A DNA stretch of 64,000 nt from an uncultured delta proteobacterium (GTDB taxonomy: Bacteria; Chloroflexota; Dehalococcoidia; Dehalococcoidales; BS750m-G39): contig CAVTZP010000005.1 of the NCBI GenBank assembly GCA_963739245.1, positions 153,314-217,313 of the forward strand. Reading direction: 5' to 3'. Each line of letters begins with the position of its first letter. Within the stretch, counting starts at the first letter, position 1. The translations under genes and the position numbers were made by a program. Shown here one piece after another: positions 9,742-11,777 of the stretch. The notes under the pieces are model-generated. The model was not told the origin of the DNA. It saw only the letters and a program-made list of their open reading frames with translations, and ran no database searches.

Positions 9742-10722
9742 ATGCCAGCTAATCTACCACCACAATATCATGAAGCCGAAGAGAACTTACGGTTGGCTAA
9801 GACTATCCCGGAGAAGGTAGCCGCCCTTGAGGAGATGCTGGCGGTCATGCCTAAGCACAAGGGGACTGACCACCTCCGGGCTAAGCTAAGAGCCAAGATT
9901 GCTCAGCTGACCGAGGCGTCAGAAAAAAAGTTAGCCACCAAGCGGACGTCAACGGCTATACCCAGGGAGGGGGCAGCCCAGGTGGCGGTAATTGGCTTGC
10001 CTAATTCGGGCAAATCCCAGCTTGTTGCCACCATCACTAATGCCTCCCCGACTGTAGCCGAATACCCCTTCACCACCCACAACGCCACCCCGGGGATGAT
10101 GGAGTTTGAGAATATAAAAATCCAGTTGATTGATACCCCGCCCTTAGCGCCACAGTCTATTGAGTTCTGGTTGCCAGCCTTGCTGAGACGGGCTGACGCC
10201 CTCTTGATTATGGTGGACTTATCCGATGCCCCGGAAGAGCAGGTGGCGGCTATCCTTAAACAGCTGGAAAATATGAGGATAGTAACTGGTGACAGTGGGG
10301 CAAAAGAGGATGCTGAGTTTATTATCTGGCATAAAAAGGCATTAATTATTGGCAACAAAATAGACCTGGATAATGCCCAAACCAATTACACCGCTTTGAA
10401 GAATAAGTATGGAGAGAAATTCCCAATTATTGCCATCTCCGCCAGAGATGGGACAGGCTTGGAAGAGCTGAAGCTTAAGCTCTATCAGTTTCTTGACATT
10501 ATTCGGGTATATACCAAAGCGCCGGGGCAGAAGCCGATTTTCACTGACCCCGTCGTCCTGAAAAGGGGAAGCACCCTGGAGGATGCCGCCGCCGAAGTCC
10601 ATAAAGACTTCCGGGAGAAGCTAAAATACGCCCGGCTCTGGGGCTCAGGTAAGTACGACGGCGTCATGGTGAAGAGAGACCATATTATGCAGGACGGCGA
10701 TATTATAGAGCTGCACCTTTGA
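9742..10722 (+). CDS. OBG-HflX superfamily GTPase of the DRG type with a C-terminal TGS domain
   Basis: N-terminal helix PKHKGTDHLRAKLRAKIAQL resembles the DRG KNKATEHHLG motif. G1 GLPNSGKS, G3 DTPP, G4 NKID. TGS-like end IIELHL. Confidence 0.8.
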   Translation: MPANLPPQYHEAEENLRLAKTIPEKVAALEEMLAVMPKHKGTDHLRAKLRAKIAQLTEASEKKLATKRTSTAIPREGAAQVAVIGLPNSGKSQLVATITNASPTVAEYPFTTHNATPGMMEFENIKIQLIDTPPLAPQSIEFWLPALLRRADALLIMVDLSDAPEEQVAAILKQLENMRIVTGDSGAKEDAEFIIWHKKALIIGNKIDLDNAQTNYTALKNKYGEKFPIIAISARDGTGLEELKLKLYQFLDIIRVYTKAPGQKPIFTDPVVLKRGSTLEDAAAEVHKDFREKLKYARLWGSGKYDGVMVKRDHIMQDGDIIELHL

Positions 10723-10836
10723 GATAATGAACAATTCGTCAGAAAGTGCAGCGCCATAAGGTTGACAAAGGGGACTCAGCTATATAAAGTGTTAATTACT
10801 AATTTGTGCCTGCACTTCATGACGCAAAGGTAAATA

Positions 10837-11595
10837 ATGGCAGACATTATTGAGGGTAGAAACCCGGTCATTGAGGCACTAAAGTCTGGCCGTCCCATAA
10901 ATAAAATATTGCTGGCCCGTAATATTGGACGGCATAGCGCAGTTGCCAAAATATTGCAGCTTTCTCAGGCCAGGGGAATACCCGTTGAATACGTGACAAG
11001 ACATGCTATTGATGAATCGAGCACAACTTCTGCTCACCAGGGGGTCATTGCTTACGCCGCGGTCAAGGAATATGTTACCTTAGAGGACTTGCTCATTATC
11101 TCTAGAGAAAGGAACGACCCCCCTCTTTATTGCATCCTTGATGGTATTGAAGATCCGCAGAATCTGGGGTCAATTCTTAGAACCGCCGAGGCCAGTGGTA
11201 CCCACGGCGTGATTATCCGTTCAAGAAGGGCTGTGGGGCTCACCGCTGCTGTGGCCAAGGCATCGGCTGGTGCCGTGGAGTATGTGCCGGTGGCAAGGGT
11301 ATCCAGCATCTCTCAGACTATAGTAACCCTCAAGAGAAGTAATGTCTGGGTTGTTGGCATAGACCCCGCCGGCGAAATCGACTACACCCACGTGGATTTC
11401 AGACTGCCGACAGCGATTGTCATAGGTAGTGAGGGCAAAGGACTATCTGATTTGGTCCAAAAAAGGTGTGATTATTTGGTGTCTATCCCGATGCGAGGGA
11501 AAATTACCTCGCTTAACGCTTCGATTGCTGCGGCTTTGGTAATGTACGAAGCCTTAAAACAAAGAAGCCGGTTTTCACTGACCCCGTCGTCCTGA
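10837..11595 (+). CDS. rlmB: TrmH-family 23S rRNA 2'-O-ribose methyltransferase
   Basis: N-terminal substrate-binding domain (IEGRNPVIEAL) and SpoU MTase motifs (LDGIEDPQNLGSILRTAEA, IGSEGKGL, SLNASIAAALVMYE). The last ~10 codons are read from the duplicated GTPase 3' segment. Confidence 0.85.
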   Translation: MADIIEGRNPVIEALKSGRPINKILLARNIGRHSAVAKILQLSQARGIPVEYVTRHAIDESSTTSAHQGVIAYAAVKEYVTLEDLLIISRERNDPPLYCILDGIEDPQNLGSILRTAEASGTHGVIIRSRRAVGLTAAVAKASAGAVEYVPVARVSSISQTIVTLKRSNVWVVGIDPAGEIDYTHVDFRLPTAIVIGSEGKGLSDLVQKRCDYLVSIPMRGKITSLNASIAAALVMYEALKQRSRFSLTPSS

Positions 11596-11765
11596 AAAGG
11601 GGAAGCACCCTGGAGGATGCCGCCGCCGAAGTCCACAAAGACTTCCGGGAGAAGCTAAAATACGCCCGGCTCTGGGGCTCAGGCAAGCACGACGGCATCA
11701 TGGTAAGGAGAGACCATATCATGCAGGACGGGGATATTATAGAGCTGCATCTTTCTAAAGAGTGA
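11563..11765 (+). pseudogene. Orphan 3' fragment (TGS domain, last ~66 codons plus stop) of a second DRG-like GTPase allele
   Basis: It aligns base for base with 10529-10741. There are 10 substitutions in 195 nt, 6 of them synonymous. There is no upstream part and no start codon. Confidence 0.85.
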
Positions 11766-11777
11766 ACAATTCGTCAC

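Follow-up and report, generated by a model that had tools for sequence, protein, structure and literature searches.

The 3' end of a conserved GTPase gene recurs behind an adjacent rlmB gene in the window (the whole 64,000-nt stretch that was analysed), and this direct repeat is probably the scar of a homologous-plus-illegitimate recombination between strains, by which cargo was stacked at a gene-exchange hot spot. Two versions of the locus would have been joined, one in which the GTPase gene was followed by rlmB, and one in which a GTPase allele of the consensus type preceded other cargo. Of the two crossovers, one would have been homologous and placed in a conserved flank, either on the GTPase/uvrC side or on the side of the HAD hydrolase gene. 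The other would have been an illegitimate join, which used a short stretch common to the region of the rlmB stop and GTPase codons ~262-266 (AAGAAGCCGGT...TTTAC/T). The order that results is working GTPase gene with copy 1 of the repeat, rlmB, copy 2 and further cargo, in which copy 2 is not translated as GTPase and, in the window, provides rlmB with seven out-of-frame codons and a stop. The order and direction of these events, the route by which foreign DNA was taken up and a role of copy 2 as homology arm are things we infer; import from the left (copy 1 and rlmB) and import from the right (copy 2 and cargo) would both fit the data.

The locus is an instructive but fairly ordinary recombination footprint. 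On the reading given above it would document cleanly, in nature, the growth of a gene-exchange hot spot by the stacking of cargo from different strains, where each join leaves a fragment of a conserved flanking gene that preserves the allele of the donor or the recipient. Such scars may be usable to trace recombination partners among uncultured Dehalococcoidales. The features of the locus are collected in Table 1.

Table 1. Features of the GTPase-HAD interval (window coordinates)
Feature	Position	Strand	Basis and remarks
Working GTPase gene, 326 aa	9742..10722	+	ORF; MMR_HSR1 G domain PF01926 and C-terminal TGS domain PF02824; homologues; conserved uvrC-GTPase neighbourhood
Repeat copy 1	10529..10741	+	Last 64 GTPase codons, stop 10720-10722 and 19 nt beyond
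rlmB module, promoter region and gene, 843 nt	10730..11572	+	blastn boundaries; in other contexts in relatives, 86-98% nt identity
Left junction, 21-nt motif ACAATTCGTCAGAAAGTGCAG	10731..10751	+	Homology breakpoints, motif search
Predicted sigma-70-like promoter of rlmB	10762..10790	+	TTGACA, 17 nt, TAAAGT; consensus match only
rlmB ORF, 252 aa	10837..11595	+	NCBIfam TIGR00186, 222 bits vs cut-off 160
Right junction, 11-nt microhomology AAGAAGCCGGT	11562..11572	+	Alignments; native rlmB 3' end vs GTPase codons ~262-265
Repeat copy 2, 214 nt	11563..11776	+	Displaced, untranslated GTPase 3' end of consensus-type allele
Motif half ACAATTCGTCA closing copy 2	11766-11776	+	Repeat alignment
IS110-family element, IS1111 group	11777..13429	+	PF01548, PF02371; ends from L188, L189, L190 and L191; left edge uncertain by 2-3 nt
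IS transposase	11873-13145	+	Broken by one extra G at ~12397
Nitrilase-superfamily (CN_hydrolase) cargo gene	13491..14594	+	Profile match; MFS transporter gene in its place in L183
Third motif copy ACATTCAGCCAGAATGTGCAA (14625-14645)	14622..14650	.	Perfect 10-bp hairpin, then T run
Cof-type HAD hydrolase gene	14648..15454	-	ORF, profile, synteny; conserved right flank of the variable segment

The repeat and the rlmB module between its copies

A repeat search yielded a direct repeat of 192 nt (10529-10720 vs 11563-11754) with 95% identity and a spacing of 1034, which local alignment extended to 10529-10741 versus 11563-11776 at ~95% identity with one 1-nt indel. The indel is situated just after GTPase codon L326, and the last 14 nt, TGAACAATTCGTCA, are identical in both copies. 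The similarity is far above chance (blastn E ~1e-88 for the equivalent sequences of the related contig L183). An earlier note, made from the letters of the DNA alone, had the second copy run to 11777; the recurrence itself stands, and its end moves one nucleotide inwards, to 11776, since the C at 11777 mismatches the G at 10742. The same note placed the start of copy 2 at 33 nt before the rlmB stop, which agrees with the ORF in Table 1, had the rlmB C-terminus read out of frame from the repeat, and let the repeat adjoin an IS110-like element. Indeed, the last seven residues, FSLTPSS, lie beyond the ...KQRSR* end of the homologues, and three other copies of the IS align with the window from 11763-11779 onwards. 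The would-be stop of copy 2 is found at 11763-11765, preceded by an SKE extension. Neither a compositional anomaly nor a tRNA was found near the repeat site, and an Rfam scan of 10400-14800 returned nothing relevant.

The RlmB homologues are 245 residues long, and residues 1-245 of the window protein are native. The native 3' end of rlmB reads AAACAAAGAAGCCGGTAG. The join at AAGAAGCCGGT cost the window gene its stop codon, and the last seven codons and the stop are taken from copy 2 in another frame. L183 has its own variant of the right junction, reading ...CCGGTAGTTTAC and then TGACCCC, in which the rlmB stop TAG plus TTTAC are kept before the GTPase sequence starts. For annotation this means that the 252-aa rlmB product is chimeric, that the 214-nt copy 2 is not a gene and that the IS transposase is frameshifted. 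The first half of the motif at the left junction is native to the region downstream of the GTPase gene, and with its second half the rlmB module begins. A 15-nt inverted repeat, seen as an inverted motif copy, flanks the predicted rlmB promoter (10737-10751 and 10810-10824). The left junction coincides with a rare motif that brackets rlmB elsewhere too, and here the whole variable segment, which is a hint of a process with more specificity than illegitimate recombination at random.

At least four further contexts harbour the rlmB module, in two cases with a nucleotide identity of 98%. The identities are 98.6% in L059, 98.2% in L100, 94% in L185, 90% in L060 and 87% in L062, all in contexts other than that of the window, where L059, L100 and L185-187 are short metagenome contigs whose contexts could in principle be mis-assembled. 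Sequences that share 98% identity have this core ribosome-modification gene at different positions in the chromosome. In a metagenome scan with the 17-mer CGTCAGAAAGTGCAGCG, L100 alone carries rlmB among the at least 120 loci listed, the others being chance matches. A block of 112 nt that precedes rlmB in L059 and L100 was considered as a decayed GTPase relic and rejected, as only short stretches of it are similar; it is a unit in its own right, which also stands ahead of the IS in L188. Distant relatives have a SpoU gene between the GTPase and HAD genes, and this is not the same rlmB (27-33% identity; the one tested, of L040, scores below the RlmB cut-off).

In homology-facilitated illegitimate recombination, a homologous anchor on one side is combined with a microhomology join on the other, as known from naturally transformable bacteria such as Acinetobacter and Streptococcus pneumoniae. 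The locus resembles this process in that non-syntenic DNA lies beside a conserved gene with one side homologous, and in that the other junction is a microhomology and the partner DNA is a diverged allele. A novel joint at a short microhomology is present (11 nt; in L183 the variant at TTTAC/T), and a homologous anchor with a partner from a diverged relative is indicated by the synonymous bias, the consensus-type copy 2 and the mosaic GTPase gene described below. There are also differences: here, in uncultured Dehalococcoidales, only the natural footprint of the process is seen, the join lies inside the anchor gene and gives a partial duplicate instead of a deletion, and it is recurrent at one locus in several lineages. 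The term itself occurs in PMC6382021 and PMC8504540.

Divergence of the two GTPase ends

The ten substitutions counted in the earlier note, six synonymous and four conservative, were reproduced by the Nei-Gojobori method over 63 codons (Sd=6.0, Nd=4.0; I/V, Y/H, V/I and K/R). The resulting pN/pS between the copies is 0.19, and the probability of at least six synonymous changes out of ten is 0.011 under neutrality, where the counts behind these tests are small (10, 6 and 4 events). Each of the copy 2 residues occurs in full-length GTPase homologues, including the R in VRRDH, and the three-codon SKE* tail of copy 2 is natural, being found in the full-length homologues P0127, P0140 and others. 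Five of the differences are common to the window and L183, and in each case it is copy 2 that agrees with the nearest relatives. Copy 1 has the lineage-specific residues I, Y and V, which occur in only 2-3 of the best 120 homologues, and the two carriers that were checked, P0121 and P0122, represent the GTPase of this lineage itself. At the position of the copy 1 Y, 116 of the best 120 homologues have H. The relics of the window and L183 differ in turn by three synonymous changes and one non-synonymous change plus a different natural stop region, and the GTPase gene itself is mosaic.

The note saw in copy 2 what is left of a second functional allele, as opposed to a local duplicate in decay. 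This is supported by the synonymous bias and the pN/pS, and also by the consensus residues, the SKE* tail, the agreement with the nearest relatives at the five shared differences and the allele-like differences between the two relics. On these comparisons, the data support copy 2 as the displaced end of a consensus-type GTPase allele. A simple tandem duplication was rejected, as rlmB is single in both the window and L183 and the copies diverge in an allele-like manner; a second rlmB accompanying the duplication, which the note had named as a refuting observation, was seen in no relative examined.

It is rather unlikely that the arrangement arose in a one-step intragenomic event, in which a template switch during replication, or a double illegitimate join, copied the rlmB module out of its old locus and into the GTPase tail. 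The short homologies would then be the 12-13-nt motif half at 10730-10742 and the 11-nt AAGAAGCCGGT, with duplication of the 213 nt between them, and the copies, identical at birth, would have come to differ later via homologous exchange with foreign GTPase alleles. Such an event is economical, in that a single rearrangement suffices; both junctions are short homologies, the right-hand target is placed upstream of its left-hand counterpart, as a template switch would give, and allelic overwriting of copy 2 is needed anyway for the differences between the window and L183. However, the outgroup state is found in copy 2 at each of the five shared differences, and the derived state in the working copy. 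The one-step event therefore needs five changes, three of which are non-synonymous, in the copy under constraint but none in the one that is free, for which the probability is at most ~0.03 by symmetry, or alternatively at least two separate overwrites. The relics of other genomes, treated in the next section, also point to the joining of different alleles.

For the preferred reading, a joining of two strains' versions of the locus, donor genomes were sought in two forms, GTPase-rlmB without a relic and GTPase (SKE allele)-IS-nitrilase-family gene-HAD, and neither was found, so that we infer the two parental alleles. Exact-protein look-ups with the window rlmB, the window GTPase and P0121 matched no record.

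The GTPase-HAD interval in related genomes

The order xerD-uvrC-GTPase-(1-4.5 kb variable)-HAD (minus strand)-acpS-yebC is kept in most of the 58 species representatives of the Dehalococcoidales. None of these 58 carries this rlmB, the nitrilase-family gene or the IS at the locus, and in L184, where the GTPase and HAD genes are 6 nt apart, the site is empty, which answers the question of the earlier note whether an empty site exists among relatives. The same order of GTPase gene, rlmB and second GTPase 3' end is found in L183, a 96-kb JGI contig from an independent metagenome assembly. It is ~98% identical to the window over 1655-11776 and 14640-19565, the homology resuming at 14640, and behind copy 2 it carries an MFS transporter gene, as opposed to the IS and the nitrilase-family gene of the window. 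A second JGI contig, of 374 kb, encodes the same GTPase protein and has largely the same neighbouring genes.

These contigs bear on the possibility that the window is an assembly chimera, the shared GTPase tail having led to a mis-join between contigs of two co-occurring strains. The copies do resemble two alleles, and the source probably is a metagenome-assembled genome. Nevertheless, a mis-join, also raised by the earlier note as grounds for refutation, is extremely improbable: L183 is a different assembly, ~2% diverged, with the same order and its own variant junction, the second JGI contig agrees in GTPase protein and in most neighbours, and a chimera would not yield an rlmB ORF fused at an 11-nt microhomology.

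GTPase 3' relics were found downstream of the gene in five of 53 related loci. Relics start at about codon 263 in the window, 266 in L183, 282 in L024 and 315 in L011 and L009. Their junctions show short homologies, of 11 nt in the window and of 2-5 nt in L011 and L024, which is what illegitimate joins should give. In L024 the relic differs from the working end by Sd 8.8 and Nd 2.2 (P=3e-5), with a pS of 0.32. In L024 the GTPase gene is followed by a gene for a small peptide, the relic and a gene for a 280-aa protein, and in L011 by the gene for the 280-aa protein, the relic and the small-peptide gene. By gene order, the same two cargo modules are stacked reciprocally in L024 and L011. This divergence and these stackings are the observations that, as stated above, argue against identical copies at birth.

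Copy 2 is still homologous to incoming GTPase alleles and can therefore serve as the left homology arm in later cargo swaps that would spare rlmB. A later swap of this kind would explain why the window and L183 differ across copy 2 and in the cargo behind it. When a crossover was sought on the HAD side, the HAD gene of the window was found to be somewhat more diverged from that of L183, at 95-97% identity against 98-99%, a difference that does not decide for a crossover there.

Hot spots of horizontal transfer flanked by core genes are known from the comparative genomics of chromosomes. The GTPase-HAD interval is of this kind, being a short interval with different cargo in nearly every genome (FAD oxidoreductase, catalase, membrane protein, MFS transporter, nitrilase-family gene and rlmB). 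It differs from them in its datable scars and in that one of the cargo genes is a housekeeping rRNA methyltransferase. Repeated gene-end fragments also arise where integrases accrete islands in tandem at the 3' ends of tRNA, tmRNA or protein genes, for which the ssrA-linked islands of Dehalococcoides are an example. There too, cargo is stacked behind a conserved gene, each unit preceded by a copy of the gene's 3' end, and the working and displaced ends differ in sequence. Unlike those islands, however, the units described here have no integrase in or beside them, the starts of the relics vary, the repeat is 213 nt long and one junction is a microhomology in the rlmB stop region.

The 21-nt motif and the IS1111-group element

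The motif ACAWWNMGYCRGAADGTGCAR, with the outer palindrome TGCAC-N13-GTGCA, is present in two intact copies in the 64 kb, versus 0.00 expected, plus the half copy at the end of copy 2. The third motif copy lies next to the HAD stop, where the variable segment ends on the right; its background frequency is ~3e-6 per position under a matrix built only from left-type sites. Together the positions 10731, 11766 and 14625 bracket the variable segment. The motif also brackets the rlmB module in L185-187 and L100, and the homology between rlmB contexts breaks at the motif centre. As a high-copy REP the motif was rejected, given the two intact copies and a half, next to which two weaker motif-like sequences occur at 59905-59948. 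A different family of REP-like hairpins is the repeated one.

A site-specific integration, in which rlmB and other cargo are cassettes moved by a recombinase via the 21-nt motif or via an att site in the GTPase 3' end, seems improbable to us. The repeat would then be an attL/attR pair, the element supplying a replacement gene end. In line with this, a direct repeat flanks the insert, and an unusual working end with a consensus displaced end is the pattern of an element that brings its own gene end; the brackets formed by the motif around the rlmB module and around the variable segment of the window, the breaks at the motif centre and the use of the same motif as target by the IS1111-group element fit as well. 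Yet only rlmB, and no recombinase gene, lies between the repeats, and the nearby tyrosine recombinase is the XerD equivalog in conserved synteny. Moreover, the right end of rlmB in the window is not at the motif but was cut at the stop codon by a microhomology join, the variable relic starts mean that the crossover position is not constant, rlmB modules elsewhere come without a GTPase fragment, and the motif is found in other intergenic regions too.

That the motif is a genuine recombination site, between copies of which rlmB and other cargo move as cassettes, and more than a terminator or regulatory sequence held in common, we consider doubtful; the idea stems from its bracketing of the rlmB module in several genomes and of the variable segment and from its use as a target by the IS1111-group element. 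Recombination might then be due to the bridge-RNA recombinase that the IS encodes, acting in trans, or to some other enzyme. If true, the GTPase-HAD interval would act as a hot spot for cassettes that lacks an integron integrase, and its mobile units would include a housekeeping rRNA methyltransferase. An integron gene-cassette array was itself rejected: the nearby tyrosine recombinase gene, which the integron-integrase scoring covered, scores as XerD (352.6 bits, cut-off 329.6) and falls well below the integron-integrase cut-offs, rlmB has a promoter-like site of its own and the motif is 21 nt long. The attC sites of integrons are structures much longer than that.

Finally, the element that follows copy 2 belongs to the IS1111 group. 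When its frameshift is repaired, it encodes a transposase of 423 aa that is 97% identical to intact homologues and combines the DEDD domain PF01548 with PF02371. Its non-coding ends measure ~95 nt (left) and ~284 nt (right), with the subterminal inverted repeat ATGGCTCC/GGAGCCAT and no classical terminal repeats. Members of this group use a DEDD recombinase with a bridge RNA and insert at specific sites that are repeated or palindromic, REP elements among them (PMC11208160, PMC11208158); a right non-coding end that is longer than the left and subterminal inverted repeats are the criterion for membership (PMC11208160). The window copy differs from the group in that its target is a rare, partly palindromic 21-nt motif (2-3 copies in 64 kb) and not a high-copy REP, in that the copy is frameshifted and in that its bridge RNA is putative. 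Another specialised target is known from the IS1111-attC elements, which insert at the attC sites of integrons.

The right end of the IS folds better than shuffled sequences (z = -2.7) and contains TCGTCA, with no match in Rfam. For TCGTCA as a candidate guide-target match, the covariation with targets across four copies was unconvincing. The left flank reads (A/C)ACAA(TT/AC)CGTCA in all three independent copies of the IS with a readable flank, a small sample, and this sharing is in keeping with the specific targeting on record for IS110/IS1111 elements (PMC11208160). The element would have inserted separately and later, at its specific target ACAAnnCGTCA, with which the repeat closes. A specific target is herewith defined for a widespread IS1111-group element in the Dehalococcoidales.

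Two alleles of the GTPase 3' end

A repeat search of the window returned a direct repeat pair of 192 nt with 95% identity (10529-10720 and 11563-11754). Local alignment extended the pair to the full copies listed in the table, with a single 1-nt indel immediately 3' of the last shared codon; the last 14 nt of both copies are identical (TGAACAATTCGTCA). The pair is thus present as the earlier note described it, except that copy 2 was said to end at 11777, one base too far. The ORF into which copy 2 reaches was identified as RlmB by NCBIfam TIGR00186 (222 bits, cut-off 160).

The closest GTPase homologue with a retrievable context, protein P0122 (98% identity), is located on the 96-kb JGI contig L183, which is approximately 98% identical to the window across 1655-11776 and again across 14640-19565, and has the same order of GTPase, rlmB and second GTPase 3' end. 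The P0122 protein is also encoded on a second contig of 374 kb, where the neighbouring genes mostly encode the same proteins as in L183. Because L183 departs from the window both where rlmB joins copy 2 and within copy 2, it represents an independent strain rather than a second version of one assembly. An assembly artefact, such as the mis-join of two strains considered in the earlier note, is ruled out by this separate strain with the same order.

The Nei-Gojobori method gave the same six synonymous and four non-synonymous differences between the copies that had been counted before (pN/pS 0.19; the probability of at least six synonymous changes out of ten under neutrality is 0.011). Five differences are common to the window and L183. 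Copy 2 agrees with the nearest relatives (loci L025, L002, L001 and L184) in every one of them, and copy 1 has the derived state, including the residues I, Y and V. Histidine occupies the position of this Y in 116 of the 120 best homologues, with Y in just three and KPIFT in just two; the two carriers of KPIFT/Y that were examined, P0121 and P0122, are the own GTPase of the window's lineage. All residues encoded by copy 2 occur in full-length homologues: its product equals P0127 exactly over the stretch KRGST to ELHL, and P0140 shares the SKE* tail, for which many other homologues have HKE, QKE or YKE. The copies diverge most in the stop region (four substitutions and the indel in about 12 nt), and both versions of it are natural (TGAGATAATG in L003 and L004, TAAAGARTGAAC in L001). 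The synonymous bias, the consensus-type residues and the natural tail bear out the proposal that copy 2 is the relic of a second functional allele, and on these sequence grounds the two copies are two alleles of the GTPase 3' end.

Compared with each other, the relics of the window and L183 show three synonymous changes and one non-synonymous change, a differing stop region, and TT versus AC in the motif discussed below. Given such allele-like differences, copy 2 does not stem from copy 1 by decay, and at least one overwriting by a foreign allele is probable. Across 10529-10719 it is the working tail that is odd (I, Y and V; most homologues have V and I at the other two positions), and the untranslated relic that keeps the consensus. 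The centre of the window's GTPase gene (about 10140-10480) is nearer to L004 (80-87%) than to L001, L002 and L025 (71-84%), which are closest in the 5' part; this segment looks like an older recombination mosaic.

Features of the GTPase-HAD locus and related sequences (window coordinates unless a locus is named)
Feature	Location	Description
Copy 1	10529-10741	last 64 GTPase codons, stop and 19 nt beyond
Copy 2	11563-11776	starts 33 nt upstream of the stop of the next ORF (rlmB)
GTPase gene product		326 aa; MMR_HSR1 and TGS domains
Inverted repeat, 15 nt	10737-10751, 10810-10824	CGTCAGAAAGTGCAG / CTGCACTTCATGACG
Block of about 110 nt	L188 2296-2405, L059 1145-1256, L100 187-295	motif half at its end
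Split transposase ORF	11873-12427 and 12441-13145
Cargo modules read as reciprocally stacked	L011 6978-8240, L024 6945-8240	GTPase 3' relic between
REP-like hairpin repeat	7648-7715, 32436-32509, 44651-44703, 49912-49988	CCCCCTCTCCTT...AAGGAGAGGGGG

rlmB between the GTPase and HAD genes

With the GTPase protein, 58 loci were retrieved from species-representative genomes, nearly all of them Dehalococcoidales MAGs. Most share the order xerD-uvrC-GTPase-variable interval (1 to 4.5 kb)-HAD(-)-acpS-yebC, HAD being a convergent Cof-type hydrolase gene; the tyrosine recombinase scores above the XerD equivalog cut-off. The contents of the interval vary by genome (FAD oxidoreductase, catalase, 280-aa membrane protein, lipoprotein, small membrane peptides), and the rlmB, nitrilase-family gene and IS of the window were found there in none of the 58 loci. 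The earlier note had proposed to look for rlmB and for an empty site in relatives: an empty site exists in L184, where 6 nt separate HAD from a GTPase gene that is 90% identical. Six distant relatives (L035, L036, L040, L041, L044, L045) have a SpoU/TrmH-family methyltransferase gene in the interval, a SpoU paralogue 27-33% identical to the window's RlmB; it was rejected as RlmB, the one version tested (L040) scoring below the RlmB cut-off. The L040 gene adjoins surE and a metallo-beta-lactamase-fold gene.

At the nucleotide level, 10730-11572 (promoter region and rlmB) matches rlmB loci of other contigs, with identities of 98.6% (L059), 98.2% (L100), 94% (L185-187), 90% (L060/61) and 87% (L062). 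These loci occupy at least four other gene neighbourhoods, none adjoining a GTPase gene. The comparison marks rlmB as an inserted piece at the GTPase-HAD locus. At the left junction, the homology to other rlmB contexts begins inside ...ACAAnnCGTCAG/AAAGTGCAG, and the first half of this sequence is the native DNA downstream of the GTPase gene in the rlmB-less L008 and L025; in L001, without rlmB, it is found there in degraded form. At the other end, RlmB homologues have 245 aa and a C-terminal KQRSR*, and beyond the native gene end, AAACAAAGAAGCCGGTAG, conserved 3' sequence continues for about 50 nt. The window switches to GTPase sequence after AAGAAGCCGGT, so that rlmB has lost its stop and gained seven foreign codons; this 11-mer also occurs at GTPase codons ~262-265 of consensus-type alleles. 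In L183 the switch lies 8 nt later (CCGGTAGTTTAC/TGACCCC), leaving a normal rlmB of 245 aa.

A 15-nt inverted repeat, which may be a regulatory or structural element, flanks the rlmB promoter-like site and also occurs in the L100 and L183 rlmB modules. In L188 the block of about 110 nt stands before the IS, and in L059 and L100 before rlmB; the DNA farther upstream is different in each, and the first 25 nt of the block recur elsewhere in L059, L060/61 and L191.

Recurrent scars and their possible origin

When 53 related loci were each queried with their own GTPase tail, downstream relics were found in five (L008, L009, L011, L024, L183). The 133-nt relic of L024 is separated from the working end in that locus by 8.8 synonymous and 2.2 non-synonymous changes (pS 0.32, P=3e-5). 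In L024 the GTPase gene is followed by the small membrane peptide, then the relic, the 280-aa gene and HAD. In L011 it is the 280-aa gene that directly follows the GTPase gene, and the relic, the small membrane peptide and HAD come after it; L026 and L006 have just the GTPase and 280-aa genes. From gene order, L011 and L024 are reciprocal stackings of two cargo modules, with a GTPase 3' end before each module. The peptide module of L024 encodes 26 aa (MEWWTWILIAALVILVVVWFMVRRKR); the other is the 280-aa membrane-protein gene. The codon at which the relic starts varies between loci, and the joints have only a few bases in common with the resident sequence.

The independent assembly, the empty site, both junctions and the recurrence identify the feature as a recombination scar whose general type is known. 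In the simplest account, related strains with different versions of the locus would recombine by one homologous crossover within a conserved flank and one illegitimate join at any available short homology, the pattern of homology-facilitated illegitimate recombination; a join inside the flanking gene would leave a partial duplicate between stacked cargo units. Copy 1 and rlmB may have come in from the left, or copy 2 and its cargo from the right. A single template-switch event followed by allelic conversion is unlikely, since the five polarised differences are common to the window and L183. One later replacement, in which copy 2 and HAD served as the homology arms, would explain the three linked differences between window and L183: all of copy 2 including the shifted joint, the cargo (IS and nitrilase-family gene versus an MFS transporter) and a mild excess divergence in HAD. 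The relic would thereby keep a role as landing pad, at which cargo could be exchanged without deleting rlmB. It is noteworthy that a housekeeping gene has been relocated, that scars recur at one hot spot, and that a motif is common to the cargo boundaries and the target of an IS1111-group element.

The IS and the 21-nt motif

The IS after copy 2 belongs to the IS1111 group of the IS110 family (PF01548 and PF02371). Its short left end (~95 nt), long right end (~284 nt) and subterminal inverted repeat (ATGGCTCC/GGAGCCAT) follow the pattern described for this group, in which a bridge RNA is reported to be encoded in the right end (PMC11208160). The right end of the window's IS is predicted to fold more stably than shuffled sequence (z = -2.7), and an Rfam scan of 10400-14800 gave no relevant match. 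Alignment with four other copies (L188 to L191) placed the IS ends at 11777-11780 and 13429. One extra G at ~12396-12397, relative to the intact L188, L189 and L191, breaks the transposase, reflecting either a dead copy or a sequencing error; intact 423-aa homologues with 97% identity are abundant. All three copies with a readable left flank are preceded by (A/C)ACAA(TT/AC)CGTCA. This target lies at the end of copy 2, so the IS inserted there, and it did not create the repeat. An outward-facing promoter-like sequence (TTGACT...TATAGT, 13400-13429) at the right end points towards the nitrilase-family gene, the likely start of which is 13491 rather than the ORF-finder's 13422.

A 21-nt motif (ACAWWNMGYCRGAADGTGCAR) has the IS target as its first half. 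With at most one mismatch, the motif occurs in the 64-kb window at just two places, 10731 and 14625 (0.00 expected), with a half copy at 11766; these are the left edge, right edge and internal boundary of the variable segment. At 14625 the motif forms a perfect hairpin, with a T run, adjoining the HAD stop, and an inverted copy lies within the rlmB 5' UTR. With a matrix built from left-type sites only, the right-type sites reach scores whose background frequency is 3e-6 to 3e-5 per position. In L185-187 and L100 the motif flanks the rlmB module on both sides, the homology among rlmB contexts breaks close to the motif centre, and in L188 the IS sits precisely at the motif found before rlmB in L059 and L100. 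The reading of the motif as a true recombination site, with rlmB as a cassette, is improbable: the right end of the window's rlmB is not at a motif, the rlmB unit contains no recombinase, and motif-like sequences occur in another intergenic region. The motif could be just a shared terminator-like or regulatory hairpin that offers recombination a short homology and the IS a target.

Intergenic DNA at 59905-59948, distant from the repeat locus, contains two adjacent motif-like sequences, ACAATTAGCCATCTTGTGTTC and ACAAAACATCGAAATGTGCAG. Unrelated to the motif is a REP-like hairpin repeat of ~60-70 nt with at least four intergenic copies in the window; L183 has an additional copy between HAD and acpS.
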